Of a DNA stretch of 64,000 nt, positions 821 to 38,995 are shown in pieces. The notes beneath the pieces were generated by a model. That model was given only the letters and a program-made list of their open reading frames with translations, had not been told where the DNA came from and did no database searches. The DNA comes from Ignavibacteriales bacterium. GTDB lineage: Bacteria; Bacteroidota; Ignavibacteria; Ignavibacteriales; Ignavibacteriaceae. Position 1 is the stretch's first letter, and the number at the start of each line of letters is the position of its first letter. The position numbers and the translations under genes were made by a program. Where the stretch lies: contig JAAYVN010000041.1 in the NCBI GenBank assembly GCA_012517155.1, positions 10,556 through 74,555 of the forward strand, given 5' to 3'.

Positions 821-929
821 TAACGAAAAAAGCCCTGATCTCTCAAGGCTCTTAATTTTCTGCGGGGCCGACGAGACTTCCCGATCCTCGGGACGACCTC
901 CTGCTCCCTATTCTAGCACTAAGCCTTAC
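821..929 (-). repeat. Repeat unit C: terminator-like hairpin plus a pseudo-copy of the tRNA-Asp 3' half
   Basis: Near-identical to 368-478. The tRNA-homologous segment is 862-904. Confidence 0.85.
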
Positions 930-935
930 TAAACG

Positions 936-961
936 AAAAAAGCCTCGAAAATCTTCAAGGC
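936..961 (-). terminator. Rho-independent terminator downstream of tRNA-Asp
   Basis: Hairpin gcctcgaa-aatc-ttcaaggc (942-961, one mismatch), followed on the minus strand by a T6 run (936-941). Confidence 0.65.
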
Positions 962-975
962 TTTCTTTTTACTAG

Positions 976-1050
976 CGGGGCCGACGAGACTCGAACTCGC
1001 GACCTCCTGCGTGACAGGCAGGCGTTCTAACCAAACTGAACTACGACCCC
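976..1050 (-). tRNA. tRNA-Asp (anticodon GTC)
   Basis: The reverse complement folds as a 75-nt cloverleaf: GGGGTCG TA GTTC AGTTTGGTTA GAAC G CCTGC CTGTCAC GCAGG AGGTC GCGAG TTCGAGT CTCGT CGGCCCC G. CCA is not encoded. Confidence 0.95.
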
Positions 1051-1292
1051 GTATAAAATACTAAATTAACTCTTGATTTTCTCGAAATTGTCGGGACTTT
1101 CAAACTAGAATTAAATACTACTCTAAAAAGTTAATTTCATAAATTTAGCCTACAAAGATAATACTTTTTCTCTTTTCTGTCAAATTCTTTTTCGAATTTT
1201 TTTATTTCTTTTTTAATTCCTTTTTTATATTTTAATTCCTGGATTTTGGTTCTTTGTTCGAAATTTATAGGTTTTTTCTAAAATAAATTAAA

Positions 1293-1853
1293 ATGCTCAA
1301 ATCAGAAAGACTGTCAAAGGATTTCTTTACAACTTTTATGGCTTCCGGCTCTCTGAATCAGGAACCTCCCCTCTCTATTACCCTTTGTAGTAATACCTCT
1401 CTTCTGAAACTCATTCATGACGATATGAAATCTGTCTATCCGGATAACAGAGTGGTTTTCGCAATAAAGGATGCAAGGAACTTTCTTTTTAAGATAGATG
1501 AGGATCTGCTGAGAATTTTTTTTGTAGGTTTTCTTAAGCTAATGGAAACTGTTGATTCGAATCATTTTTCTATTGCATTTTCTTCTTCAGTCATTAAGGA
1601 AAACCTGCTATTCTCATTCCATTTTCCGCTTAAACTGAACGAGCATATCATAAGTCTTTTAAATACCAAAAAGCTGATTATAATGGACAACTCGGATAAA
1701 TCCCTTTTTTCTTCTTTTTTTGTTTCCGGTTTGAACATCTTAGAAAAGCATTTCGGAATGAAATTTACTCTGGCTGAAGACCTGACTAGTATTGTTTTTT
1801 CCTTTCCTGTAAAAAATCACATGATTGATGACGGTCACATCACTCTGGATTAA
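1293..1853 (+). CDS. Hypothetical protein, possibly a degenerate stand-alone GHKL/HATPase-like domain
   Basis: 186-aa ORF, 41 nt upstream of the caspase operon. The C-terminal GLNILEKHFGMKFTL...IVFSFPV loosely resembles the end of a histidine-kinase ATPase domain. No H-box or signal peptide. Confidence 0.45.
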   Translation: MLKSERLSKDFFTTFMASGSLNQEPPLSITLCSNTSLLKLIHDDMKSVYPDNRVVFAIKDARNFLFKIDEDLLRIFFVGFLKLMETVDSNHFSIAFSSSVIKENLLFSFHFPLKLNEHIISLLNTKKLIIMDNSDKSLFSSFFVSGLNILEKHFGMKFTLAEDLTSIVFSFPVKNHMIDDGHITLD

Positions 1854-1893
1854 TTATGTGTATATTTAATAGTAAATAAATTGCGAGTGTGTT

Positions 1894-2238
1894 ATGAAAA
1901 AAAATAGTTTATTTTTTGTAATCTTCCTTCTCTTAAGCATATCTCTTTTGCCTCAAAATGATTTTGGATTGAGTGAGATTTTTTCAATGGACGTAAGCAC
2001 CGGGAAAATAACTTCCGCTCATGTCCTTCCTGGAAATACTGAATTTATATTAACCGGGGATGATGGTTATATTCGTCAATTTAGTTTAACAAATGGCAAA
2101 GAACTCTTTAGTATGAATATTTCTCCGGCAGGAATTGTTTCTGGCGTCTTGATGGACTCAACTCTTTATGCAATCACTAAAGATAATAAACTCCTTTTCA
2201 TTTCCATTGCCCCCGTTACCCTGCTTCGATCTATTTAA
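1894..2238 (+). CDS. N-terminal fragment (signal peptide plus first WD40-like blades) of the WD40-caspase protein, ending at an in-frame TAA
   Basis: Sec-type leader MKKNSLFFVIFLLLSISLLPQ. Same reading frame as 2293..3918. The 54 nt between the stop and the next ATG also read as WD40-like sequence. Confidence 0.7.
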   Translation: MKKNSLFFVIFLLLSISLLPQNDFGLSEIFSMDVSTGKITSAHVLPGNTEFILTGDDGYIRQFSLTNGKELFSMNISPAGIVSGVLMDSTLYAITKDNKLLFISIAPVTLLRSI

Positions 2239-2292
2239 TTATATAATTCCCCAGGCTGCATTGCTCCGGGAACTGATGAAATATTTATTGGT

Positions 2293-3918
2293 ATGAATGA
2301 TGGTTCTATTAAACGATATGACCTTACGACTGGAATCTCTGACTCCCTGTTTTTAACCCATATCTCTCCTGTCACAGCAATGGTCAAGGATGTCAACAGA
2401 AATTATTTGATCAGTGCCGGTACGGATAATAATATCAAACTTTATGACCTCACTCAGAGAAATGAGATAGGAAAGATGATGGGGACAAGTAATTCAAAAG
2501 CTAATTCCTTAATCCTTTCTTCAGATGGTTCAACTCTCATTTCGGCACATGACGATAATATGATTAAAATCTGGAGCATGAATGAAACCCGCCAAATAAA
2601 GAATATTAATGAACATAATTTACCGGTTTACAAAATCTTGTTTAGTCACGACAACAGCTTCTTTCTCTCCGGCGGCGAAGATAAAATAATGCACATATGG
2701 AGTGCATATAGTTATAATCTGCTCAAATCCACTGGCTTAAAGGAGGGACCTCTAACCAACGCTGTTCTTTCACAGGACGATAAATTCCTCGTAGCAACTA
2801 TTTCTCCAAATATTATCAAGGTATTTGAAGTTTCAAATGGCTCAACAATGTTAGCTGGCAATCTCAGCACGCTCAAACGTTCCAATCTTACGCTTAGCGA
2901 TAAAATAATAATTGAAATTACTGAACCTAAATCATCACGAGGATTAAAGATTAGCGGTGCGTCTAATACCATAACTGTCTCCGGAAGAATTATTAGTCCT
3001 GCTCCAATAAATTCTCTTAGCATCAATGAAACGGATTTCGACTTCAATACCGATAACACATTTAGTTGTCAGGTTAATTTATCACTTGGTCACGGGAAAT
3101 TACTTGTACGGGCAATAGATATTAACAACAACTATAATGAAAAGGAAATCGATATTGCTGGAGATATAACCCTCAATAATTCTAATACCGATCTCTCCCA
3201 GGTTGCAGCCGGAAGTAAGTTTTACGCAATTTTAATCGGTGTCGACCAGTATAAAGATAAAAAAATCCCGACTTTAAGTAATCCAAGCAAGGATGCTTCT
3301 AAACTCAAGGATATCCTTACTAAACGATATACTTTTGACAAGGATAACGTTGTTCTCTTAAAGAATCCCTCCAGGGCTGAATTGCTTGCCGCTTTAGGCG
3401 ATTTGCGGAAAAAGATTTCGGAAGAGGATAATTTCTTGATCTTTTATGCCGGACATGGTTTCTGGGACAAAGAGATAAGTCAGGGTTATTGGCTGCCAAG
3501 TGATGCTGAAAAAGACAACCGGGCAAATTGGATCTCAAATGGTGACCTCAGAGATAATATCCGTGGTATTAAATCAAAACATACTCTGCTTATCTCTGAC
3601 GCTTGTTTCAGCGGTGGAATATTTAAAACAAGAGCCATTCTCGATGATGCCCCCCCATCAGTAGCGGAAGTATATAAGATGACCAGCAGAAAAGGAATGA
3701 CCAGCGGTACTTTAACAGAAGTGCCGGATGAATCCCCTTTCTTAAAGTATCTTGTAAAAAGATTAAATGAGAATAATCAAAAATATCTGCCTGCGGAAAT
3801 CTTGTTCACTTCACTTAAAACCGCAGTAATTAATAATAGCAAACAGGTCCCCCAATATGGCGAAATACAGGACGCCGGCGACGAGGGAGGAGACTTTATT
3901 TTTATCCTGAAAAGATAA
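2293..3918 (+). CDS. WD40-repeat protein with a C-terminal peptidase C14 (caspase-like) domain
   Basis: WD40 blade endings DNNIKLYDL, DDNMIKIWSM, EDKIMHIWSA. Caspase p20-like core YAILIGVDQY...LIFYAGHG (His codon 3454-3456) and LLISDACFSGG (Cys codon 3604-3606). Confidence 0.85.
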   Translation: MNDGSIKRYDLTTGISDSLFLTHISPVTAMVKDVNRNYLISAGTDNNIKLYDLTQRNEIGKMMGTSNSKANSLILSSDGSTLISAHDDNMIKIWSMNETRQIKNINEHNLPVYKILFSHDNSFFLSGGEDKIMHIWSAYSYNLLKSTGLKEGPLTNAVLSQDDKFLVATISPNIIKVFEVSNGSTMLAGNLSTLKRSNLTLSDKIIIEITEPKSSRGLKISGASNTITVSGRIISPAPINSLSINETDFDFNTDNTFSCQVNLSLGHGKLLVRAIDINNNYNEKEIDIAGDITLNNSNTDLSQVAAGSKFYAILIGVDQYKDKKIPTLSNPSKDASKLKDILTKRYTFDKDNVVLLKNPSRAELLAALGDLRKKISEEDNFLIFYAGHGFWDKEISQGYWLPSDAEKDNRANWISNGDLRDNIRGIKSKHTLLISDACFSGGIFKTRAILDDAPPSVAEVYKMTSRKGMTSGTLTEVPDESPFLKYLVKRLNENNQKYLPAEILFTSLKTAVINNSKQVPQYGEIQDAGDEGGDFIFILKR

Positions 3919-3935
3919 TTTATAGGAGCAATAAA

Positions 3936-4532
3936 ATGAAATATATAATATTTTTGATCACCGTTTTTTTTCTCTCAAGCGGATTAACGAGTGGTCAGTC
4001 AACTAAAGCCAGATTTGGAATCTTGCTGAAAAATGGCGATCAGCACACTCGCATCAAATCTAATGATCGCGCAAAAGTTAACGACAAATTTAAGATTGTG
4101 ATTCAGGCACTGAACGATTCTTATAATTACGTCCTTTATTCTGACGGTACGGAAACATTACTCCTTAATTCTAAAAAACAGTCAAAGTTGAAAACAAATG
4201 ACAGATTAATACTTCCCGGTAAAAGTGATTACTATGAATTCGATGATCAGAATTCCAAGGCATTTCTGTATGTCATAAATTCAAAAAAACCGGTAAAAGA
4301 AATTGATAATCTTTTTGCTTCAGGTAACTCAGTAAGTAGCACAAAATGGAAAGCCGTTGAAGATAAAATTATTAAATCCATAAAGTCGGATTTAAATGAT
4401 AATTCGGATCAGCCTATTTCAATTGCTGGGAATGTTCGCAGTCTTGAAGATGATAAACTTGATAAACTCCTTCAGACTTTTTCTGATAAAAAAATGATTT
4501 TCAAAAAATATCAAATTGAAATTAAGAAGTAA
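3936..4532 (+). CDS. Exported DUF4384-like protein
   Basis: Signal peptide. KFKIVIQALNDSYNYVLYSDGTETLLLNS...RLILPG resembles DUF4384, a domain usually found with caspase/CHAT proteins. SD aggag lies upstream. Confidence 0.6.
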   Translation: MKYIIFLITVFFLSSGLTSGQSTKARFGILLKNGDQHTRIKSNDRAKVNDKFKIVIQALNDSYNYVLYSDGTETLLLNSKKQSKLKTNDRLILPGKSDYYEFDDQNSKAFLYVINSKKPVKEIDNLFASGNSVSSTKWKAVEDKIIKSIKSDLNDNSDQPISIAGNVRSLEDDKLDKLLQTFSDKKMIFKKYQIEIKK

Positions 4533-6702
4533 AAAACTCCTCTATCCACTTTTATCTATAAATTTGGCGGCAGGCGCAATCCTAGCGCTTGCCTTTTTTA
4601 TTTTCAATATAACCTGGAATACCACAGATTACAAAATCCTTGACTTGTATTACTCACTTGCGCTTGAAAAAGGCTATGGTCCCCAAATCAGTCCTCGCAT
4701 TGTCCACTTGAATATATCCAACAAGACATATGAGTATTTTGGGAAAAACTATCTTGATAGAGGCTTTTTAGCCAATGCTAACAATATTCTGACAGAACTA
4801 TCCCCCCAGGCATGCATGTTTGATCTGATTTTTGTCCATCCAAGTAATCCTCACGACGACAGCCTGTTTCAAAAATCACTTGAAAATGCTCCCCATTTCT
4901 ATCTTCCGGTTGGTATGAAACTTTCTGAAACCACACATTCTTTTAAGTGGGAAGAAGGACCTTATTTTGATAAGCTCAGAGATAACTTCTTGATGAAAAT
5001 CCAGGAAATAGGTGAAGGCAAACCGTATTACTCCCTCTATGGGCAAAGCCAAAATCCAATGTTCGCTGAAGTGATTGAAAACTCAGGCCATATTTCATCG
5101 GTCCCCGACAATGATGGGGTTTACCGGCATTACCCGCTGCTGATAAAAGTTGATTCCTTATTTCTTCCAACTGCCACATTATCAATTTTTCTTAATTATA
5201 ATAATATCCCTGCAGAAAGTCTCCGCATTTTCTGGGGGGATAAAATAATAATTCCTAAAACTGCGGACAGCTATCTGGACAAAGAAGTGATTATACCTAT
5301 TGACTATAAAGGACGCTGCTACATCCCCTATCCCGACAGATGGCAGGATAGTCTGAAACGGATTGAGATGCAGAACTTTGTAGAGCGATACGGAAATGAG
5401 GAAGAATTTGATGAAATGACTGAGATTTTTGAAGGCAATTTTGTTTTTGTCGGTGATATCTCCACGGGTATAGCGGACCTTGGACATACTCCCTTACAGC
5501 ATGATGTTCCCCTGGTTGCCGTTCACTCCGCTTTAATGAATGCTTTTTTAACAAACTCCTTCTATCGTGAAATACACTCTGAGATAATCTTTTACATTAT
5601 TGCAGTATTTTTATTATTGCTCTCGCTGGCTTTACTTCTGAAATCAAATAATTTTATCTATACTTTCGAAGTGGCCGCACTTCTTATACTTGTAATTACC
5701 ACATACTTATTTATTAAAGTTCACTTGCTTATTCCAATATTCTCCATATTCCTGGTAATTTCAATTTTAAGTTTTGTCAGTATTCTTTCCCTTCAGATAA
5801 TTAGTACAAAAGAAGAAAAATTTATTAAAAATGCTTTCTCAAAATACTTGCCGGCAAAAGTGGTGGATAAACTTGTTGATAATCCTCAATTACTCCAGCT
5901 TGGTGGTGAGGAAAGAACACTCTCTTTACTCTTTTCCGATATTGTAGGCTTCACGACTATTTCCGAATCTCTTCAACCAAAAATCCTTGTTCAACTACTA
6001 AACGAGTATCTGACGCGAATGACGGACATCGTTTTTGAAAATTCCGGAATTATTGACAAATATATCGGGGATGCCATACTAGCAGAATTTGGAGCACCTG
6101 TATTTAATGAGAAACATCCGGACCTGGCTGTTTCCACTGCTATATCTATGCAAAAGGAACTTCTAAGATTAAATAATGACTGGAAAAATCTTTATGGAAC
6201 TTCTATAAAAGCAAGAGTTGGGATTAATACGGGTAAGGTAATCATTGGTAATATGGGCAGTCGTCAAATGTTTGATTATACGGTTATAGGTGATTCTGTG
6301 AATCTGGCTGCCCGGCTTGAAAGCGTCAACAAAAAATATTCAACCTCCATTCTGATTTCCGAGTCTACTTATGATGCGCTAAAAATGAACACTTATCTCA
6401 TACGACCCGTGGATGTTATAGTAGTCAAGGGTAAAACAAAACCGGTGAAAATATTTGAAGTTGCAGGATTCTTAACAGATTTTTCGGGCAATTACAAACT
6501 TGAATTGTTTGAAAACTATTCTATAGCCTTTGAGAAATTCCTGAATCGTGATTTTGAGAATGCAACCAGGATACTTAATAACCTGGCATTAGCTCATCCC
6601 GATGATATTCCAACCAGTCTCTTGATTGATCGTATCGCAAAAATAGATACCTCCAAAATTGATGATTCCTGGGATGGTTCCCTCGAACTAACCGAAAAAT
6701 AG
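4516..6702 (+). CDS. CHASE2 sensor domain-containing class III adenylate/guanylate cyclase
   Basis: N-terminal TM, extracytoplasmic CHASE2-like region (...FVFVGDISTGIADLGHTPL...), a TM bundle, then cyclase motifs LFSDIVGFTTISE, GDAILAEFGAP, RVGINTGKVIIGNMGS, YTVIGDSVNLAARLES. Confidence 0.9.
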   Translation: MKLRSKKLLYPLLSINLAAGAILALAFFIFNITWNTTDYKILDLYYSLALEKGYGPQISPRIVHLNISNKTYEYFGKNYLDRGFLANANNILTELSPQACMFDLIFVHPSNPHDDSLFQKSLENAPHFYLPVGMKLSETTHSFKWEEGPYFDKLRDNFLMKIQEIGEGKPYYSLYGQSQNPMFAEVIENSGHISSVPDNDGVYRHYPLLIKVDSLFLPTATLSIFLNYNNIPAESLRIFWGDKIIIPKTADSYLDKEVIIPIDYKGRCYIPYPDRWQDSLKRIEMQNFVERYGNEEEFDEMTEIFEGNFVFVGDISTGIADLGHTPLQHDVPLVAVHSALMNAFLTNSFYREIHSEIIFYIIAVFLLLLSLALLLKSNNFIYTFEVAALLILVITTYLFIKVHLLIPIFSIFLVISILSFVSILSLQIISTKEEKFIKNAFSKYLPAKVVDKLVDNPQLLQLGGEERTLSLLFSDIVGFTTISESLQPKILVQLLNEYLTRMTDIVFENSGIIDKYIGDAILAEFGAPVFNEKHPDLAVSTAISMQKELLRLNNDWKNLYGTSIKARVGINTGKVIIGNMGSRQMFDYTVIGDSVNLAARLESVNKKYSTSILISESTYDALKMNTYLIRPVDVIVVKGKTKPVKIFEVAGFLTDFSGNYKLELFENYSIAFEKFLNRDFENATRILNNLALAHPDDIPTSLLIDRIAKIDTSKIDDSWDGSLELTEK

Positions 6703-6776
6703 TTACTGCGTATTAATTTATTTTGAAAAAACAATCATTTGTCATAAATTTCTAAAAACAATTCTAAGGTTTACTG

Positions 6777-7145
6777 ATGAAACTCAGATTTTTATTTTTT
6801 GCTTGGATTGCTATAGTTTATATAGGGACATCAACCTCATTTGCCCAGTCAACTATGGAGGTGGGCTATTTTTCATTTAATGAAGGAACTCCGGGTTACA
6901 CGCTTAATAATGGAGAGGGGGATAGATTTGTCCAACTGGAAATAAGGTTTACAAAAACCTTTAACTCAAAACCGGAAATAGTTTTTTCGATAGAGCAACT
7001 CGACTGTTCAATTGACGGCAATGTCAGGTATTCTGTTGAGAGTTCTTTGGTCACCCGGGAAAGTTTCCTGTTAAAGATAAAGACATGGCAGGATACACGA
7101 ATTTTTGCAATCCGTGGTAAATGGATCGCTATCTCTAATGATTAG
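6777..7145 (+). CDS. Small secreted protein, H-type-lectin-like domain
   Basis: Signal peptide. FTKTFNSKPEIVFSIEQLD...VTRESFLLKIKTWQDTRIFAIRGKWIAI resembles the H-type lectin fold signature. Its 3' end overlaps convergent glcF by 11 nt. Confidence 0.5.
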   Translation: MKLRFLFFAWIAIVYIGTSTSFAQSTMEVGYFSFNEGTPGYTLNNGEGDRFVQLEIRFTKTFNSKPEIVFSIEQLDCSIDGNVRYSVESSLVTRESFLLKIKTWQDTRIFAIRGKWIAISND

Positions 7146-8451
7146 ATTGATTTTCTTTCAGAGATTTACGCAATAAACTGACGGGGTGTATCACTTTTAC
7201 GGGGACATTAAATTTTTCAGCTCCATACTGGATTTGTCCCATACATCCCGGATTTCCGGTAACCACAGTATCTGCTCCTGTATTTTTAATATTTTCCATT
7301 TTTCGTTTCAGAAACTTCATCGAGTCTTCATACCTTACTACATTATAGATTCCTGCACTGCCACAGCACCACATTGACTCATCCAGCGGCTTGAGATCCA
7401 AACCCGGGATCTGATTTAACAGAGCCCGTGGCTCCTTTGTTATTTTTTGAGTATGGCACAAATGACATGCGTCATGATATGTAACCGTTTCTTTCACAGA
7501 ATTTAGCGGGGCTGTGATTCCTGCCATGTCAATGAACTCAGTTACTTCCTTAACTCTAGCAGACAGTACTTTCGCTCTTTCAGAGTAGTCAGGATCATCT
7601 TCAAAAATATGGGCATACTCTTTCATGTACGCAGCACAGCCGGCAGAGTTCGATACTATATAGTCAAACTTGTATTTTGAGAATTGGTCAATTGTCTTTT
7701 TCGCAAGATCCTTTGCGAGATCCAACTCACCATAATGTGCCATTAAAGAACCACAACATCCCTGATCAGGCGGACAGATTATTCTGCAGTTATTTCTTTT
7801 CAGCACTTCAACGGTATCCAGATTTATATCCGCGAAAGCCACATTCATTATGCAGCCGGTAGGAACAATAACATTATATCTGGCCTCGCCAACCGGTTCG
7901 GTAATTTCCTTTATCTGCGAGTCACTGAACACCTTTGAAATACGAGGAGTCATCTTATTCATTTCGACCATAATTTTAAGGGATTTGAACAGCCCGAAAA
8001 ACTTATTTGCCAGCCATTCAATACCAAAATTCTGATAGAAATACAAAAGTTTCCCGACTATTTTTATATTCAGCTTTGAACCGACCACATAATGCAGGGC
8101 AAATCTCTTAATATATCTGGCTCCAAAAGAGTCCTTGCCCGATTTAGTGATTATGTCTCTTGCGGCTTCTACCAGGGAACCATACTTAACACCGGCAGGG
8201 CACACGGTTTCACATGCCTGACAGTCAAGACAATAATTCATTTCATCAATGAATGTTTGGGTTATATCGAGTTTACCTTCTGCAAGTGATTTAATCAACC
8301 GGATTCTACCACGTGGTGAAGATCTTTCCAGAAAGTCAACGTTATAAGTTGGACAGGTGGATAAGCACATTCCGCAATGCATGCACTGAACGATTACATC
8401 ATCACCGGGCAATATACTTAAAAGTTTTTTTATGTTTATATCTTGAGACAT
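7135..8451 (-). CDS. glcF: (Fe-S)-binding oxidoreductase subunit, GlcF family (two 4Fe-4S motifs plus CCG domains)
   Basis: CMHCGMCLSTCP and CLDCQACETVCP ferredoxin motifs, followed by cysteine-rich CCG repeats (GCCGS, WCCGSAG). Confidence 0.9.
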   Translation of the reverse strand: MSQDINIKKLLSILPGDDVIVQCMHCGMCLSTCPTYNVDFLERSSPRGRIRLIKSLAEGKLDITQTFIDEMNYCLDCQACETVCPAGVKYGSLVEAARDIITKSGKDSFGARYIKRFALHYVVGSKLNIKIVGKLLYFYQNFGIEWLANKFFGLFKSLKIMVEMNKMTPRISKVFSDSQIKEITEPVGEARYNVIVPTGCIMNVAFADINLDTVEVLKRNNCRIICPPDQGCCGSLMAHYGELDLAKDLAKKTIDQFSKYKFDYIVSNSAGCAAYMKEYAHIFEDDPDYSERAKVLSARVKEVTEFIDMAGITAPLNSVKETVTYHDACHLCHTQKITKEPRALLNQIPGLDLKPLDESMWCCGSAGIYNVVRYEDSMKFLKRKMENIKNTGADTVVTGNPGCMGQIQYGAEKFNVPVKVIHPVSLLRKSLKENQSNH

Positions 8452-9056
8452 TAGAATTCTTTTCGGAATATTGTGGAATTATTATCTGATAAAATAATCA
8501 TTTCTTCTGAGAGCAGAGGCCATCCTTTATATTCGTATTTCCTGAGAAGCAGCTCCCCTTTATGCCTGAAACAATGATTATTAATATATAAAATCAATTT
8601 GCCATCCTTATAATAAGAAGTCGAAACAAGCTCCCCGAAATCCACATTAATATCAATACTTATGTGTTCTATCTTCACTACTTGTTTCACACGATCAGTG
8701 TGAACCCGGTATAACGCTGTAAAAATATCGTGATCAAATAAAAATCCATAGTAATCATCATATGTCTTCTCACTCCGCATCATCATCAGAGTGTATTCAA
8801 TTTCAGGAATCCGACTGAATATGTCGGGTGAAAAAATAAGATAGTCAGAGCATCCGGTTGAGTTCTCGAGAAGCTTGGGCACTTCCCTTCTTTCTTTGAT
8901 ATCCCCGCTCAGATATCTTCCGGTTATTTTACTTGTATCAATTTCGCAGCTCTTTAGAATGGAATCAACCTTTACGGACATATACGGATTCAGCGATTGA
9001 GAAAATAAATGGGCAACAGTCCAGACAAAGTACATAAGTACGAGAAAAGTTCTCAT
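8451..9056 (-). CDS. Hypothetical protein with an N-terminal hydrophobic leader, sitting where glcE normally lies
   Basis: 201-aa ORF, translationally coupled on both sides (4-nt overlap with glcD, 1-nt overlap with glcF). No FAD-binding motif recognised. Confidence 0.6.
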   Translation of the reverse strand: MRTFLVLMYFVWTVAHLFSQSLNPYMSVKVDSILKSCEIDTSKITGRYLSGDIKERREVPKLLENSTGCSDYLIFSPDIFSRIPEIEYTLMMMRSEKTYDDYYGFLFDHDIFTALYRVHTDRVKQVVKIEHISIDINVDFGELVSTSYYKDGKLILYINNHCFRHKGELLLRKYEYKGWPLLSEEMIILSDNNSTIFRKEF

Positions 9057-10492
9057 TTATGAAATTCCGGAATTTCTTCTCTTGAGGATGGTAATTTTCC
9101 CTCGCATTTTGGACCGATTGACAATATTTTAGTCGGGTTTAGAATATTATTCGGGTCCATTACACATTTAATCTTTTTCATGAACTCAATACCGGGACTA
9201 CCCACAAGCTGTTCAAGGAAATGCTTTTTCGCAAGACCTGTTCCATGCTCACCCGTAATTGTTCCACCAAGTTTAATTGCCTCGTTGAAAATATAGTCAA
9301 ACGCTCTGTGAGCATTGAGAATACCCTCCTTATCACGTTCATCGGCTAAACAGGTAGGATGCAGATTACCATCACCAAAGTGCCCGAAATTACCAATTTC
9401 AACGTTAAAATTGCCTGAAGCATACCTCACCTTCTCTATCATCACAGGCAGTTCACTTCTGGGAACTGTGGCATCTTCAAGAATTGTTGTTGGCTTTTTT
9501 CTTGCCAGGGCGCTAAAAGCACTTCTCCGGGCTGTTTTTAATTCCAATGCTTCTGCTTCGAGAGTTGCGGAGCGGACGTAAGTACAATTATTCATTTTAA
9601 GAATATTTGTCACTGTGGCAGCATCAATATCCACCTCATCCCCCCTGCCGTCTAATTCAATCAATAAAACCGCTTCGCTGTTTCTTGGAAGACCGATATG
9701 TGTATAATCCTCCACGCAATTTATTGTGGTATGATCCAGAAACTCCATCATACACGGTGTTAATCGGGCTTCAATAATGTGGGATATTGATTTACCGGCA
9801 TCAAGCATCTTGTCAAAAAAAGCAAGTAAAGTTATTGATTTCTGGGGTTTGGGGAGCAACTTTAAAAGAACCTTAGTGATAATTCCCAGGGTTCCCTCAC
9901 TGCCAACAATTATATCCCTCAGATTATAACCGGCAACATCTTTTACGTTCTTACCCCCGATTTTGAGAAATTCCCCTGTAGGGGTTATCATTTCAAATCC
10001 AAGGACATAATTTTTAGTAACTCCGTATTTCAGCCCCCTCAGACCCCCGGCATTCTCAGCAACATTCCCGCCTATCGTGCAAACATTCAAGCTTCCGGGA
10101 TCAGGCGGATAAAAAAGTCCGAGGGATTCAACATCCTTCTGAAACTTTCCGGTGATTACTCCCGGTTGTACTGTAGCGGTTAAATTTGCCTGGTCTATTT
10201 CCAGGATTTTATTCCATTTGGTTAGCACCATTACAATAGAATTTTCAACCGGAATCGACCCGCCGCTTAAGCCTGTACCCGCTCCCCTTGGTACAACAGC
10301 AAATTTTTCTTCATTGGACAGCTTTATAATTTCTGCAATCTGAGTTTCATTTTCGGGAAAAACAATTGCGTCAGGCTGTTGAGAGATTAATGGGGTACCG
10401 TCATATGAGTAACAAATCTTGTCCTCAATTTTATCGGAATAGTTTTTCTCTCCAACAATATGTTTGACTTTTTCAAGTAATGCGGAATTCAT
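9053..10492 (-). CDS. glcD: FAD-linked oxidase, GlcD / D-lactate dehydrogenase family
   Basis: FAD_binding_4 pattern (VVPRGAGTGLSGGSIP) and the C-terminal FAD-oxidase domain (GTITGEHGTGLAK). Confidence 0.9.
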   Translation of the reverse strand: MNSALLEKVKHIVGEKNYSDKIEDKICYSYDGTPLISQQPDAIVFPENETQIAEIIKLSNEEKFAVVPRGAGTGLSGGSIPVENSIVMVLTKWNKILEIDQANLTATVQPGVITGKFQKDVESLGLFYPPDPGSLNVCTIGGNVAENAGGLRGLKYGVTKNYVLGFEMITPTGEFLKIGGKNVKDVAGYNLRDIIVGSEGTLGIITKVLLKLLPKPQKSITLLAFFDKMLDAGKSISHIIEARLTPCMMEFLDHTTINCVEDYTHIGLPRNSEAVLLIELDGRGDEVDIDAATVTNILKMNNCTYVRSATLEAEALELKTARRSAFSALARKKPTTILEDATVPRSELPVMIEKVRYASGNFNVEIGNFGHFGDGNLHPTCLADERDKEGILNAHRAFDYIFNEAIKLGGTITGEHGTGLAKKHFLEQLVGSPGIEFMKKIKCVMDPNNILNPTKILSIGPKCEGKLPSSREEIPEFHK

Positions 10493-10496
10493 ATGA

Positions 10497-10778
10497 TTAA
10501 TTAAAATATCTTGATAAAAAATAACTGACTATATATGCCGTCACCACGACACCTAATGCCAAATAAAGTAGTTTCTTCAAAAAATTCTTTGTCGTACCGA
10601 ATGAAAACTTCACACCCCTCCAGCCGCATTCGCTGCATCTGTATATTCTGAAAATCCTTAAACTTTTAAGAATTTTTTCCCAGATTGTGCGTGCTCTTGA
10701 TCTGTTCAGTGCACCAATGCTTTTACAAGATGGACATCGTGCGAAGGCAGGATCAACTTTATGAAGCAGTTTACTCAT
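10497..10778 (-). CDS. Small zinc-ribbon protein with a C-terminal TM helix
   Basis: Two CxxC pairs (CPSCKS, CSECGW) plus the hydrophobic tail LLYLALGVVVTAYIVSYFL. Confidence 0.55.
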   Translation of the reverse strand: MSKLLHKVDPAFARCPSCKSIGALNRSRARTIWEKILKSLRIFRIYRCSECGWRGVKFSFGTTKNFLKKLLYLALGVVVTAYIVSYFLSRYFN

Positions 10779-35180: not shown

Positions 35181-36005
35181 CTAATATTCGCCCACTTTGT
35201 ATATTGTGTTTGCTTTCAGCCACTTGTTCAACGGTTCCCAGCTGAACTTACATCCGGGATAATTAGCCTTAATTACCTGACCAATTACCCAGCCTATATC
35301 CTCTTCATCTTTTTTATTCTTTTGTAAAACCGATACGGTTGTGTTGATTTCTTTTACCAATGCTTCCTTCTCGGGAATGATCAATATAAATTTGTGGATA
35401 ACCAGGGTTGTATCTGTATTCTTCCTGATTAGCTTAACGGGTAACTCGCCGCATGGGATATCCTCTGCAGAAATCAAACTGTCAATTTGCGCGAAAAGAA
35501 GCAGAATCTCATTGTCCGCTTTGATTGGCAGTGTTTGGATTTTGTCTTTTATGTTAATCTCCATGAAAATATCGTCCTCTTCCCTAAGCGGAGGATATAA
35601 AAATAGCTGCTGTGTACCAAAGAAAACTGTGCAGTCCCCCAACTCGTCTCCGGTAAATGAGAGATCAAAATCAACACTCTTTTTATAAATTACCGCAGTT
35701 GTAGAACCTAAAATGGGGGACATTATGGCTTTCACCAGGTACTGCAGTTCGTTTGATTTTCCTTCTTTAGAATAATTCGGCGACAGGTTGTAAATCCCTT
35801 CGCTGGGATTCAACACTCTTACCACGGCAGTGGAATCTTTGAATTTTAACTTGTCTGTGGGTTTGAGTTTATCTCCCGGTTTGATGGTTTTATTGTTTTG
35901 CGAATTTACCACCTTTCCTTTAATCTTGATTACGTAAAGCCATGCATCCTGTGCATTTATTGAGATTCCAATGAGTAATACGAAAATCAATGTCCATATT
36001 TTCAT
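35181..36005 (-). CDS. Exported hypothetical protein with a FecR-like N-terminal segment
   Basis: Signal peptide. KGKVVNSQNNKTIKPGDKLKPTDKLKFKDSTAVVRVLNPSEGIYNL resembles the FecR beta-rich module. 4-nt overlap with the upstream CHASE2 gene. Confidence 0.45.
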   Translation of the reverse strand: MKIWTLIFVLLIGISINAQDAWLYVIKIKGKVVNSQNNKTIKPGDKLKPTDKLKFKDSTAVVRVLNPSEGIYNLSPNYSKEGKSNELQYLVKAIMSPILGSTTAVIYKKSVDFDLSFTGDELGDCTVFFGTQQLFLYPPLREEDDIFMEINIKDKIQTLPIKADNEILLLFAQIDSLISAEDIPCGELPVKLIRKNTDTTLVIHKFILIIPEKEALVKEINTTVSVLQKNKKDEEDIGWVIGQVIKANYPGCKFSWEPLNKWLKANTIYKVGEY

Positions 36006-37213
36006 TGAGCTGCCTCGCTTTCCTCAGTTGATTTTTTTAGGTTGAAACGGATTATTATAGTGTCAAGTATATTCAAATAGAGTCCCAGTATCAATACATT
36101 TAAATGGATATTGAACATCATGTATAAAAATACCGAAAATATTAACAAAATAAAGACAAATCCAAGGTACTTCCTTAAAAACCGGAGTACCCGGTATTTG
36201 ACGATTTTCTCTTTCAGTTTTTCTTTTTTTGTCACGTCGAAAATAAAATAAGAGATGACCGCAAAGAATATAAAAAGAAGCAGAACAAGATTAAAATTAA
36301 CAATATTCTTTCCTGCCTGCATAGTAAGAAGTACGTTAAGGAGTATTAGTGTCCCCGGCATATCCCCGAAGGTGGTAGGATAAAAATCCCTTTCGGTAAA
36401 GTCCCCGATCAGTATCATCCTGTTTTCTATCATCTCGATGAAAATATCGTCCGGGAGTTCGAGTATCTCCCCAAGGTTGACTATGGGATATGGGGCATCG
36501 GAGAGTTTATAATCCAGATCGTGTTTCCGTATAATGAAATCAATAATAATGTTGTTAAGTGAAAAGCGGTCATTGATCAGATTTACCGGGAAACCCATTT
36601 TCATTTCCCGCCCATTTGATAATTCATAAAGGATCAGCGGAATGCTTTTTAGTGTGTCGTTTTTCATAAGCCGGTACTTTACGTATTCCCCTCCGTAAAG
36701 TGGGTAATATGCGTAACCCGAATACCCCTTGTCCGGGAGTTCAACTTTGCCCGGCTGCGGATCATACTCGCAGGTTATCACAGTATTACTGGATTTTTCC
36801 AGCTGCGGACGCAACAGTGTATCCCCGGCAGAATGAATTCCGGGGTCAATATTAAGGAGAATAAACTTATATCCTCCCTCAACTGCATTCACCCGGTTTA
36901 AAAACAAAGCAACTGAATTCCTGTCCGTAATGCTGACATTTCCAATCTCAAAACCCTCATCATCATATCTTGGAATTAGTTCGTTCTGATATGCGGTGTT
37001 TACGAAGAGGAAGGAATTCCGGTCAGGTTTCTGTTCGGTTTTCAGAATGAATTTTTCGAACAGCGAGGTGAAACTTATCACGAGCTTGTCATCCCCGTAC
37101 GGAAAATCAAAGTAGAGGATTGCAAAAGTAATGAATACAAGAAAAATGGAATGAAGCGAGGCGTACAAAAGCTTCAGAAGCGGAAGTTTATTTAGTGGAT
37201 TTTTCGTTTTCAT
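36002..37213 (-). CDS. CHASE2-domain membrane protein without a recognisable output domain
   Basis: N-terminal TM, an extracytoplasmic ~270 aa ending in ILIGDFTERDFYPTTFGDMPGTLILLNVLLTM (CHASE2 C-terminal signature, compare the cyclase at 4516), then three TM helices and only about 15 cytoplasmic residues. Confidence 0.65.
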   Translation of the reverse strand: MKTKNPLNKLPLLKLLYASLHSIFLVFITFAILYFDFPYGDDKLVISFTSLFEKFILKTEQKPDRNSFLFVNTAYQNELIPRYDDEGFEIGNVSITDRNSVALFLNRVNAVEGGYKFILLNIDPGIHSAGDTLLRPQLEKSSNTVITCEYDPQPGKVELPDKGYSGYAYYPLYGGEYVKYRLMKNDTLKSIPLILYELSNGREMKMGFPVNLINDRFSLNNIIIDFIIRKHDLDYKLSDAPYPIVNLGEILELPDDIFIEMIENRMILIGDFTERDFYPTTFGDMPGTLILLNVLLTMQAGKNIVNFNLVLLLFIFFAVISYFIFDVTKKEKLKEKIVKYRVLRFLRKYLGFVFILLIFSVFLYMMFNIHLNVLILGLYLNILDTIIIRFNLKKSTEESEAAQ

Positions 37214-37426
37214 AAAAATACTTTATAAGTAATAATAGCAAAAAATCATTTTAATTACAACAAATTTATCCGGCTCCCTTTCCTTATAAAGCTTTCCGGC
37301 TGATGGGCATCACACCCCCTATTGGGTCACACGTTCAGAATCTTCTACGGTATTATGAATAATTCCCTTGTATCGTTATTTGTTTTAATGTTATTTTTAT
37401 TAATTAGATTATATTTTTTAGGGTTT

Positions 37427-38995
37427 ATGAAGCAAAAAACAATTCTATGGGTGGATGATGAGATTGATCTTCTTCGCTCCCACGTTATATTTCTTTCCGA
37501 AAAAGGTTTTAATGTGCTTACCGAGACTAATGGGGAAGATGCCCTTGATGTTGTAAGGAAGAAGGAAATTGATCTGATTTTCCTTGATGAGATGATGCCC
37601 GGAATAGGGGGTCTGGAAGTTTTATCGAGGATAAAGGAAATCAACCCCCAGGTCCCTGTGGTAATGGTTACAAAGAATGAGGAAGAGTTCCTTATGGAGG
37701 AGGCTATCGGCAGTAAAATAACTGACTACCTGACTAAGCCGGTGAATCCAAGTCAGATTTTCCTCGTGTGTAAAAAGATTCTTGAAAAAAAGAAGATTTC
37801 CGATCAGTTTACCACCAAGGATTATCTGCAGGACCTTAACCAGATTTCCACATTGCTTCAGCATAACCTCGACCACTCCGAATGGATTGATATTCAGCTA
37901 AAACTGACCAACTGGGATATTGAACTGGGAAATCTTTCGGATCTTAGCCTATTGCAGACTCTGACTGAACAGAGAAAAGATTGTAACAAGGAATTCTCGA
38001 AGTTCGTAGAAAAGAATTACCGAACCTGGATAAACAGCCAGCCTTCAGATGATGTTCCAACACTTACAACGCAAATCGTGGAAAAGTATCTCTTCCCGAT
38101 TTTAAGGAACAGCGACTCCCCCGTTTTCTTTTTTGTGATTGACTGTCTGCGCATGGATCAATGGCTGATAATGGAGTCCCTGCTAAGTGAATATTTCAGA
38201 ATCTCGAAAGAGTATTATTATTCAATACTCCCGACTGCCACCTCATACGCAAGGAATGCTCTTTTTGCCGGGCTTTTCCCTTCCGAAATTGAAAAGCATT
38301 ATCCCGAACTCTGGAAAGGAAATGATGACGACGAAAGAAGCATGAACAAATATGAAAAGGACTTGCTGGCACACCTTCTGGAAAGAAACAGAATAAAACT
38401 CAGAAACGAATTAAAGTATATTAAAATAATTGATCCGGAAGTGGGCAGAAACTTTGAAAACAATATAATGTCCTACCGGAATAATCATCTCACTGCAGTT
38501 GTGGTGAATTTCCTTGATATGATTGCCCACGGTCGCTCGGATTCCGACCTGTTAAAAGAAATTGCGCCGGATGAACGCGCGTACAGATCCCTTACCAACA
38601 GCTGGTTTACTCATTCCTCCCTTTTATCTACTTTCAAGGCAATCAGCAGTATGAAAAATGCTAAAATCTTTATTACCACGGACCATGGTGCGATTAGATG
38701 CCTCCGAGGCGCTAAAGTTCTTGGGGATAAGGAAACTTCGACAAATCTCCGTTTCAAATATGGAAGAAACCTAAAGGTCGATGATAAGAATGCTGTGTTC
38801 GTGAGAGATCCCCTGGATTACAAACTGCCAAGACGGGGTGTGACCACGAGTTATATAATAGCAAAGGAAGATTATTATTTTGTATATCCAACCGAATACC
38901 ATAAGTATCTGAGTTATTATAAAGACACATTTCAGCATGGGGGAATATCCCTGGAAGAAATGATATTGCCAATAATCACTATGGAACCCAAATGA
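37427..38995 (+). CDS. porX: PorX-type response regulator (CheY-like receiver fused to a PglZ/alkaline-phosphatase-superfamily domain)
   Basis: Receiver ILWVDDEIDLL...IFLDEMMPGIGG...TKP. PglZ part FFFVIDCLRMDQW, FLDMIAHG, ITTDHGAI. The ORF opens at 37322; the ATG at 37427 gives a 522-aa product. Confidence 0.85.
   Translation: MKQKTILWVDDEIDLLRSHVIFLSEKGFNVLTETNGEDALDVVRKKEIDLIFLDEMMPGIGGLEVLSRIKEINPQVPVVMVTKNEEEFLMEEAIGSKITDYLTKPVNPSQIFLVCKKILEKKKISDQFTTKDYLQDLNQISTLLQHNLDHSEWIDIQLKLTNWDIELGNLSDLSLLQTLTEQRKDCNKEFSKFVEKNYRTWINSQPSDDVPTLTTQIVEKYLFPILRNSDSPVFFFVIDCLRMDQWLIMESLLSEYFRISKEYYYSILPTATSYARNALFAGLFPSEIEKHYPELWKGNDDDERSMNKYEKDLLAHLLERNRIKLRNELKYIKIIDPEVGRNFENNIMSYRNNHLTAVVVNFLDMIAHGRSDSDLLKEIAPDERAYRSLTNSWFTHSSLLSTFKAISSMKNAKIFITTDHGAIRCLRGAKVLGDKETSTNLRFKYGRNLKVDDKNAVFVRDPLDYKLPRRGVTTSYIIAKEDYYFVYPTEYHKYLSYYKDTFQHGGISLEEMILPIITMEPK

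Follow-up and report, generated by a model that had tools for sequence, protein, structure and literature searches.

A small exported protein paired with CHASE2 cyclases, often beside exported caspase-like proteases: a candidate bacterial envelope signalling module

Why should the gene of an exported caspase-like protease stand beside those of a small exported protein and of a membrane-bound cyclase? This question is raised by a locus at positions 1293-7145 of a 64,000-nucleotide (nt) stretch from the metagenome-assembled genome (MAG) of an Ignavibacteriales bacterium, which we call the window throughout, and in which the first genes of the locus are tagged GX452_03935 to 03945. A preliminary description of this DNA had taken five of its genes as a single operon. 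Comparison with other genomes singles out instead a conserved core of two genes: fam198, as we name here the family of the 198-amino acid (aa) exported beta-sandwich protein of the locus, and the CHASE2 cyclase gene that follows it. The protease is a frequent accessory, and the two outermost genes, open reading frame 1 (ORF1) and an H-type lectin gene, are restricted to the close Ignavibacteriales lineage. We class the module as a membrane sensor that has an accessory protein in the periplasm and a protease associated with it. In our judgement, the association of protease, fam198 and CHASE2 cyclase is very probably real. That the locus specifies a signalling module of the envelope, with two core genes and an optional protease, where the protease, when present, would act through fam198 and CHASE2 on cyclic AMP (cAMP), is a reading that we see as much reason to believe as to doubt, and the specific proteolytic relay to cAMP that it contains is predicted more tentatively still.

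The evidence for the core comes from loci at increasing distances. Close relatives (80-100% identity) keep all five genes within the same flanks, and their gene order is uninformative because those flanks are also shared. At 46-50% identity of the caspase (loci L003 and L006; loci are numbered with an L here and below), the flanks are unrelated, yet the caspase, a gene for a protein of about 198 aa and the CHASE2 cyclase are kept in order, while a Bacteroidales WD40-caspase at 34% identity has neither partner gene nearby. A set of 80 metagenomic loci was retrieved through the fam198 motif (16-member alignment) and scanned with custom profiles. Among the 73 loci with at least 300 nt of downstream sequence, 65 have a CHASE2 gene whose start coincides with the fam198 stop or slightly precedes it, and wherever the CHASE2 genes 3' of fam198 are complete they carry a cyclase domain. 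Moreover, three independently chosen cyclase orthologues all have fam198 directly upstream. The controls were 80 CHASE2-cyclase loci among the matches listed in a species-level genome collection (a scope that holds for all the control counts given below), mostly 25-40% identical to the window cyclase. Only one of the 80, which is one of the two closest to the window cyclase, has fam198, and fam198 is therefore the mark of one CHASE2-cyclase subfamily.

Proteases of the caspase fold recur beside this pair. CHAT is the other large caspase-fold family besides C14. With fam198 collapsed at 80% identity and loci of less than 3 kb of flank set aside, a protease of either kind occurs in 13 of 25 pair loci versus none of the 73 control loci, that is, CHASE2-cyclase loci without fam198 (Fisher p about 1e-9). 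The loci that bear a protease are spread over several branches of a rough neighbour-joining fam198 tree, and the proteases show at least six architectures:

WD40 + immunoglobulin-like (Ig-like) + C14: the window lineage and L107
TPR + Ig-like + C14: L100
Ig-like + C14: L139
N-terminal C14, with a C-terminal half without assignment: L101 and L114
plain C14 and, after it, a Peptidase_C1-DUF4384 fusion: L154
partial C14: L102
TPR-CHAT in the adjacent slot, with no C14 gene: L009, L108, L112, L157 and L170

The joint occurrence that the preliminary description had proposed to look for is thus found, as unrelated contexts and lineages repeatedly combine a CHASE2 cyclase with an exported DUF4384-like protein and a clan-CD protease. 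The His/Cys dyad is kept in all ten pair-linked C14 proteins, and both of the Asp residues considered below are present in nine of them, the tenth being N-terminally incomplete and lacking the first Asp position. Most pair-linked proteases start with a signal-peptide or lipobox-like sequence, and an extracytoplasmic action is plausible for that reason.

Within the window, the five genes are encoded on the forward (+) strand, separated by 40, 17, -17 (an overlap) and 74 nt, as the tightly spaced arrangement first described for them. Their features, listed by position, are as follows:

1293-1853, + strand: ORF1, 186 aa, predicted cytoplasmic, without signal peptide or transmembrane (TM) segment
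1894-3918, + strand: gene of 674 codons for an exported caspase (WD40 / Ig-like / Peptidase_C14), interrupted here by a stop (translation, Pfam, intact relatives)
1894-1953, + strand: signal-peptide-like N-terminus of the caspase precursor (MKKNSLFFVIFLLLSISLLP), a hydrophobic segment at residues 1-24
2236-2238, + strand: in-frame TAA (E115*), from translation and comparison with relatives
2917-3159, + strand: Ig-like domain of Glucodextran_B-like type, located after the propeller and before the caspase domain (PF09136 in Pfam at E=2e-4, under threshold)
3223-3858, + strand: Peptidase_C14 domain, with the His codon at 3454-3456 and the Cys codon (TGT) at 3604-3606
3936-4532, + strand: fam198, 198-aa exported beta-sandwich protein, predicted distant DUF4384 relative (profile search, AlphaFold2 (AF2) model)
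4410-4442, + strand: loop motif QPISIAGNVRS of fam198, with the R168 codon at 4437-4439; candidate protease site or receptor-contact peptide
4516-6702, + strand: CHASE2 / three TM / predicted class IIIb adenylate cyclase, 728 aa, TTG start (Pfam, AF2 model)
4582-5628, + strand: CHASE2 ectodomain (residues 23-371), between the first TM segment (TM1) and a three-helix membrane bundle (Pfam, hydropathy, AF2)
5917-6444, + strand: class III cyclase catalytic domain (Pfam Guanylate_cyc, 98.1 bits; CyaB match)
6777-7145, + strand: exported H-type lectin domain protein, 122 aa (Pfam H_lectin, 65.1 bits)

For the cyclase of the core, the description as a CHASE2-TM-class III cyclase overlapping the preceding gene by 17 nt holds in domains, topology and overlap. 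CHASE2 (PF05226) scores 96.6 bits against a threshold of 26.3 over residues 23-371, and hydropathy places one TM segment before it (7-35) and three after it (within 351-382 and 379-432), in line with the helices at 6-30, 355-373, 378-401 and 408-441 of the AF2 model (predicted local distance difference test, pLDDT, 84). The best match of the catalytic domain in the PDB is the adenylyl cyclase CyaB of Pseudomonas aeruginosa (3r5g, E=4e-36), on which the modelled domain superposes with a TM-score of 0.90 and a root-mean-square deviation of 2.3 A. The earlier proposal had made its case depend on the catalytic metal and substrate residues, and in the CyaB alignment all six canonical class III positions are occupied: D475 and D519 (metal), K515 (the substrate Lys), T589, and N596 and R600 (transition state), each of them invariant across 13 cyclase orthologues. 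In the Linder-Schultz classification, a Thr in place of the substrate Asp marks subclass IIIb, and the protein fits a predicted adenylate cyclase of this subclass. As for CHASE2 itself, a sequence search found no solved structure related to the ectodomain, and the matches of the full-length cyclase model in a PDB fold search reflect mainly its catalytic domain and are uninformative on the CHASE2 fold. The 17-nt overlap with fam198 is kept, together with the cyclase N-terminus, in L001, L002, L003, L006, L169 and L170 (23 nt in L170); it persists from 46% to 100% protein identity, with differing genes on the flanks, and because the genes overlap, translational coupling of the two is predicted.

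The partner, fam198, has a hydrophobic, signal-peptide-like N-terminus and belongs to a large family, for which an exhaustive profile search recovered 488 representative clusters (216 at E<=1e-10), nearly all of about 200 aa; a word-based search for relatives gave 10 only. It had been called DUF4384-like, a claim that falls short for the window protein taken singly (PF14326, 16.7 bits against a gathering cut-off of 27) and that gains support at the level of the family, where 16 of 44 diverse members match DUF4384 at E<=0.01, the best of them at 9.8e-6. The name DUF4384 also appears on one NCBI record of the family, and one relative has a weak precomputed DUF4384 match. Because of these family-level matches and of the sub-threshold score in the window, we place fam198 as a predicted distant branch of DUF4384, one not captured by the curated models in the libraries searched.

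The AF2 model of fam198 (pLDDT 80) shows a signal helix, then a beta-sandwich of Ig-like type and two helices, and lastly a hairpin at the C-terminus, which joins the sandwich again. A PDB fold search with it returned generic beta-sandwich matches only (E>=0.02), and a profile search of PDB sequences found nothing. Between the well-folded parts of the model lies a loop with pLDDT below 50 (residues 157-170), which carries the strongest conserved feature of the family, a motif with the consensus KP[FI]x[IM]AGNVR[GS]; G165 and R168 are each kept in 136 of 142 diverse members.

The caspase gene carries the domains first ascribed to it. WD40 (PF00400) scores 63.3 bits against 27, with three repeats above threshold and many propeller models in addition, and Peptidase_C14 (PF00656) scores 67.6 bits against a cut-off of 21.4; the Glucodextran_B-type domain between them exceeds the threshold in two related caspases (L139 and L100) and is annotated in many homologues. 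The catalytic dyad, made up of the His of YAGHG and the Cys of SDACFSG, aligns with that of Arabidopsis metacaspase-4 in an alignment that is itself weak (E=0.002). Two Asp residues, one in SKDAS and one in SDAC, are aligned with the Asp pair lining the Arg/Lys-specific S1 pocket of metacaspases, and a preference for Arg or Lys at P1 is suggested for the linked caspases by this aligned pair.

The preliminary description of a signal-peptide WD40-caspase with an intact dyad was correct in the domains and in the His and Cys residues, with the Cys codon at exactly 3604-3606, but the frame of the gene is interrupted. The in-frame TAA splits the gene into a 114-aa signal-peptide fragment and a separate 541-aa WD40-caspase ORF that restarts at the ATG at 2293, two pieces listed by GenBank as the hypothetical proteins NLH60535.1 and NLH60536.1. 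Because of this stop, the signal peptide is separated from the protease in the window; the claim that protease, DUF4384-like protein and CHASE2 sensor all lie outside the cytoplasm agrees with the signal-peptide-like N-termini and with the CHASE2 topology, but the window caspase is cut from its signal peptide. The stop results from the substitution G2236T, one of 27 substitutions (with no indels) relative to the 99.7%-identical contig L002, which has GAA there. The split form occurs on a single contig; the 13 remaining members of its 90% cluster are intact at 674 aa (>50 contigs in total), and the intact 674-aa relatives P0001 and P0002 are 100 and 99% identical over the 541-aa ORF. E115* reflects either an error in the assembly or a nonsense allele private to this MAG, and if the stop is real the protease arm is inactive here; the fam198-cyclase core is intact in this MAG despite it. 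Stop-codon reassignment was considered and rejected, as four of the six stop codons in the stretch, the internal one included, are TAA and the relatives carry GAA at the site.

How might such a module work? In the mechanism that we propose, fam198 would be made together with the cyclase and would bind the CHASE2 ectodomain outside the cytoplasm, as a co-sensor or as a tethered ligand, with the near-invariant AGNVR loop as a functional contact surface. In loci with a protease, the primary cue would be captured by the WD40 or TPR module of that enzyme, and the protease would then either cleave fam198 at or near the invariant Arg or dock on its DUF4384-like domain. Cleavage or docking would shift the state of CHASE2 and so change the synthesis of cAMP. 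An invariant Arg in a low-confidence loop and proteases with a predicted basic P1 make a suggestive fit, though not evidence of cleavage. Since the motif is kept where no protease is nearby, the first role of AGNVR is probably the contact with CHASE2.

Several observations weigh against this mechanism. A protease is found near only about half of the well-sampled loci, and there is none in a large, apparently soil, fam198 clade; as the motif is near-universal and the protease stands beside only about half of the loci, the motif cannot serve a neighbouring protease alone. The basic P1 specificity is itself a prediction from the weak metacaspase-4 alignment (E=0.002) and from the residues assigned to the metacaspase S1 pocket, and CHAT proteases need not share it. 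In the window, moreover, the protease gene is interrupted. The pair has its own exceptions: 8 of the 73 fam198 genes have no CHASE2 gene after them, and in at least three of these a pyruvate phosphate dikinase-type gene (two of them Pfam-confirmed) comes instead, while L010, a close cyclase relative, lacks fam198 and has upstream of its cyclase a gene that we take, reading it by eye, to be acyl-CoA dehydrogenase-like. The metagenomic sample is biased to fam198 genes that bear the motif, the unbiased data on the motif being those of the exhaustive profile search. Finally, the mechanism as a whole is built on gene order, conservation and models.

The explanation that survives best beside the proposed relay is one without proteolysis, which we regard as somewhat unlikely. 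Here fam198 would be a periplasmic ligand-binding or accessory subunit, comparable to CpxP, LuxP or TorT, and the caspase and CHAT proteases would act otherwise in the envelope, in turnover or in the processing of surface proteins, being co-located with the pair through a common regulon or through control by cAMP. The pair is indeed far more constant (65/73) than the protease (about half), a large clade has the pair with housekeeping-type neighbours only, and the motif is kept with or without a nearby protease; other CHASE2-cyclase subfamilies also have partners that are not proteases, such as the FecR-domain proteins found in 18 of 79 control loci. Mere co-location, however, leaves the enrichment of proteases to be explained, which is strong and specific to the fam198-bearing loci (0/73 controls), as well as the recurrence of two clan-CD families in many architectures, hard to account for without a direct functional tie. 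DUF4384 domains are, in addition, fused to proteases elsewhere, and another CHASE2 subfamily also adjoins a protease, Peptidase_M48.

A second alternative, which we consider improbable, would make fam198 a pseudo-substrate inhibitor or a chaperone of the exported protease. The cyclase would then report whether fam198 is free or occupied, turning the state of the protease into cAMP without consumption of fam198, or cAMP would feed back on the protease. An invariant Arg in an exposed loop and two aligned caspase Asp residues would fit an inhibitor as well as a substrate, and the three tandem fam198 paralogues that precede a single CHASE2 cyclase in L171 (6072-7974, followed by a LytTR-type two-component pair) suggest variation in dosage or specificity. 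Many pair loci, however, have no protease nearby, and fam198 resembles known protease inhibitors neither in sequence nor in fold, its model matching generic beta-sandwiches at E>=0.02.

The locus had also been read as a possible conflict or cell-fate system, with the caspase as an effector of cell death or of defence and the cyclase making a nucleotide alarm signal. This reading now appears very improbable. Its starting points were a weak match of the caspase to the EACC1-associated caspase model and to a PADLOC caspase model, matches of the cyclase domain to Pycsar cyclase models with E down to 8e-24, and the discussion of caspase-CHASE2 fusions in the conflict-system literature. Yet the first of these (NF047832, 79.2 bits) is far under the cut-off of 140, and the PADLOC PycC matches cover only the class III cyclase domain shared by both, that is, ordinary homology. 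K515 and T589 fit a class IIIb adenylate cyclase, the closest structure being the adenylyl cyclase CyaB, and the pair-linked proteases are exported, not cytoplasmic. Neither an effector gene nor a defence island accompanies the locus, its flanks being housekeeping genes and a tRNA gene, and no effector that binds cyclic nucleoside monophosphates was found among the annotated neighbours in nine loci examined.

No less improbable is that the adjacency is inherited synteny without function and the protease arm a pseudogene, as the in-frame stop at 2236-2238 and the flanks shared by the closest relatives might suggest, for the trio persists at 46-50% identity with entirely different flanks, the stop lies on one contig, with 13 other cluster members intact, the 541-aa ORF matches the intact P0001 along its full length (listed at 100%) and so gives no sign of decay, and the cross-lineage statistics argue against chance.

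The proposed relay can be set against what is established for CHASE2 and for caspase-like proteases elsewhere. CHASE2 domains are widespread and, the protein-signal findings in Sinorhizobium meliloti aside, we know of no defined ligand or binding partner for them; to our knowledge, a natural substrate has likewise been defined for few caspase homologues of prokaryotes. The description of the CHASE2 domain dates from 2003. The CHASE2 cyclases of S. meliloti have been reported to respond to a protein signal, the plant uL2, via the outer-membrane protein NsrA, which qualifies the initial statement that CHASE2 has no known ligand (PMC13001267). CyaD1, CyaD2 and CyaK of that species resemble the window cyclase in having a CHASE2 ectodomain, a membrane anchor and a class III cyclase domain, and their activation likewise combines an extracytoplasmic protein signal with an accessory envelope protein (PMC13001267). 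NsrA, however, is a beta-barrel of the outer membrane, whereas the accessory protein would here be a soluble DUF4384-like beta-sandwich; no protease is implicated in S. meliloti, and the window cyclase falls in a separate subfamily, defined by fam198.

On the side of the protease, DUF4384 is often fused to protease domains and is also the C-terminal domain of some Csx30 proteins, Csx30 being the substrate of the caspase-like protease Csx29 (bioRxiv 10.1101/2022.08.17.504292). A protein-based input to the CHASE2 cyclase is credible in view of both the S. meliloti signal and this precedent of a protease acting on a DUF4384-related protein. In the type III-E "Craspase", the clan-CD TPR-CHAT protease Csx29 cuts its dedicated adaptor Csx30 in a flexible linker, much as we propose for the relay, but that system is cytoplasmic and triggered by RNA, acts on a sigma-factor pathway and has neither CHASE2 nor cyclase, and the likeness drawn here between fam198 and Csx30 is one of analogy. 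The Trichodesmium metacaspase-CHASE2 and the EACC2-caspase-CHASE2 fusions combine a C14 caspase with CHASE2, as the loci described here do; in those fusions the caspase is the predicted cytoplasmic output, whereas here it is exported as a protein of its own, a cyclase provides the output and fam198 stands between the two. A further parallel is the Cpx system, in which the small periplasmic protein CpxP modulates the CpxA kinase and is removed by the periplasmic protease DegP. Its protein families are unrelated to those of the present module, its output is phosphorylation instead of cAMP, and its genes are arranged in another way.

Other CHASE2-cyclase subfamilies seem to have dedicated partners of their own, and the idea of a general logic of CHASE2 with an exported partner, put forward for the window, gains from them. 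Among the 79 control loci L010-L088, a FecR-domain protein of about 250 aa is encoded upstream of the cyclase in 18, a Peptidase_M48 gene is present in 12, accompanied by a small SH3_3 protein in eight of these, and a GAF-HD protein occurs in 11. Peptidase_M48, SH3_3 and CHASE2 cyclase make up another set of protease, small protein and cyclase, not homologous to the first. In the FecR and in the Peptidase_M48 + SH3_3 neighbourhoods, the CHASE2 cyclase again lies by a small exported protein, but partners and protease belong to families without homology to fam198 or clan-CD proteases; we know of no characterisation of either neighbourhood.

The window itself had been said to hold a second CHASE2 locus with an exported partner (36002-37213). 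This 403-aa ORF has a CHASE2-like topology and an exported neighbour, as claimed, but misses the Pfam threshold (22.7 bits against 26.3) and has no output domain, so that it fits the pattern loosely. The neighbour, a 274-aa exported protein whose gene overlaps the CHASE2-like ORF, matches no known family and is not fam198 (the whole region spans 35181-38995 of the window). Beside this second locus, a response-regulator-PglZ protein is divergently encoded at 37322-38995.

In the literature searched, outside which most subscription journals lie, we found no published description of the pairing of fam198 with CHASE2 or of its link to exported caspase or CHAT proteases. Caspase-CHASE2 fusions and CHASE2 cyclases are already known, while the module of fam198, CHASE2 and protease is apparently undescribed. 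Its near-obligate pairing offers a concrete candidate partner, with one outstandingly conserved loop, for one subfamily of CHASE2 cyclases, and the recurrent exported caspase and CHAT neighbours suggest an input mechanism for such a cyclase. If the relay is true, extracytoplasmic caspase homologues of bacteria would have a role in signalling, not in cell death, together with a defined candidate substrate. A wider and more speculative view, to which we give a low probability, would make CHASE2 domains receptors for dedicated protein partners and not for small molecules, with the AGNVR loop, in this subfamily, as a tethered ligand that the caspase or CHAT protease exposes or destroys; the module would then parallel, in bacteria, the protease-activated receptors, giving cAMP as its output and having a WD40 or TPR arm that senses an external protein cue.

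The two outer genes of the locus are of a different kind. ORF1 had been described as a degenerate HATPase-like protein, an identity that we reject, as searches of Pfam, NCBIfam, PADLOC and PDB sequences detected no GHKL/HATPase similarity, nor did they lead to any other recognised family; its best Pfam match is DUF5507 at E=0.025, far under threshold, and its best PDB sequence match has E=0.33. Length and position of ORF1 are kept in close relatives, and the gene is missing in L003 and L006, where the core persists. It is 30% identical to its positional orthologue in L001, its neighbours being about 71-81% identical to their closest non-identical relatives, so ORF1 would appear either to evolve very fast or to be weakly constrained. 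The 122-aa product of the last gene is a secreted H-type lectin-like protein, as first proposed, with H_lectin (PF09458) at 65.1 bits against a cut-off of 24 and a hydrophobic, signal-peptide-like N-terminus. A lectin gene follows the cyclase in L001, L002, L003 and L089, and not in L006 or in more distant loci: it is a lineage-specific accessory.

Some of the loci that bear the pair show arrangements of their own. In L154 (2875-6528), a plain C14 protease, a fusion of Peptidase_C1 (papain-like) and DUF4384, fam198 and the CHASE2 gene are encoded in this order, a cluster with two cysteine proteases and two DUF4384-type domains. In L009 (4185-15903), from a Desulfobacterales MAG, the pair lies between a two-partner secretion (TPS)-domain exoprotein and a TPR-CHAT protease with a ShlB/POTRA transporter, which suggests export through two-partner secretion. 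A CHASE2-SpoIIE receptor, with a SpoIIE/PP2C output, is encoded upstream of the module on the opposite strand in L114, and its relatives in L096 and L108, placed likewise, and in L112 cluster with it; L112, whose second-receptor site is at 8799-10625, also has a HAMP-SpoIIE protein downstream. In the L095-L151 clade (for example, L145, 5103-5819), the large and apparently soil clade that lacks caspases, a gene for an Rce1-like (CPBP) intramembrane protease is found just upstream of fam198, along with housekeeping genes, and may reflect either the synteny of that lineage or another link to proteases. A minority fam198 clade, with L122, L135, L144 and L153 (and L143), has a pyruvate phosphate dikinase-type gene about 0.5 kb downstream and not CHASE2, and in L153 a protein of about 1000 aa without Pfam match is encoded upstream of fam198.

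Around the locus in the window, a tRNA-Asp gene lies upstream on the opposite strand (975-1050), and a convergent gene for an Fe-S/CCG oxidoreductase follows, its reverse frame beginning at 7145. Promoter and terminator scans of 900-7400 gave the same counts as shuffled controls and are thus uninformative. The G+C content of the window is about 0.36-0.39 over the first 12 kb and climbs to 0.44-0.47 around 20-32 kb.

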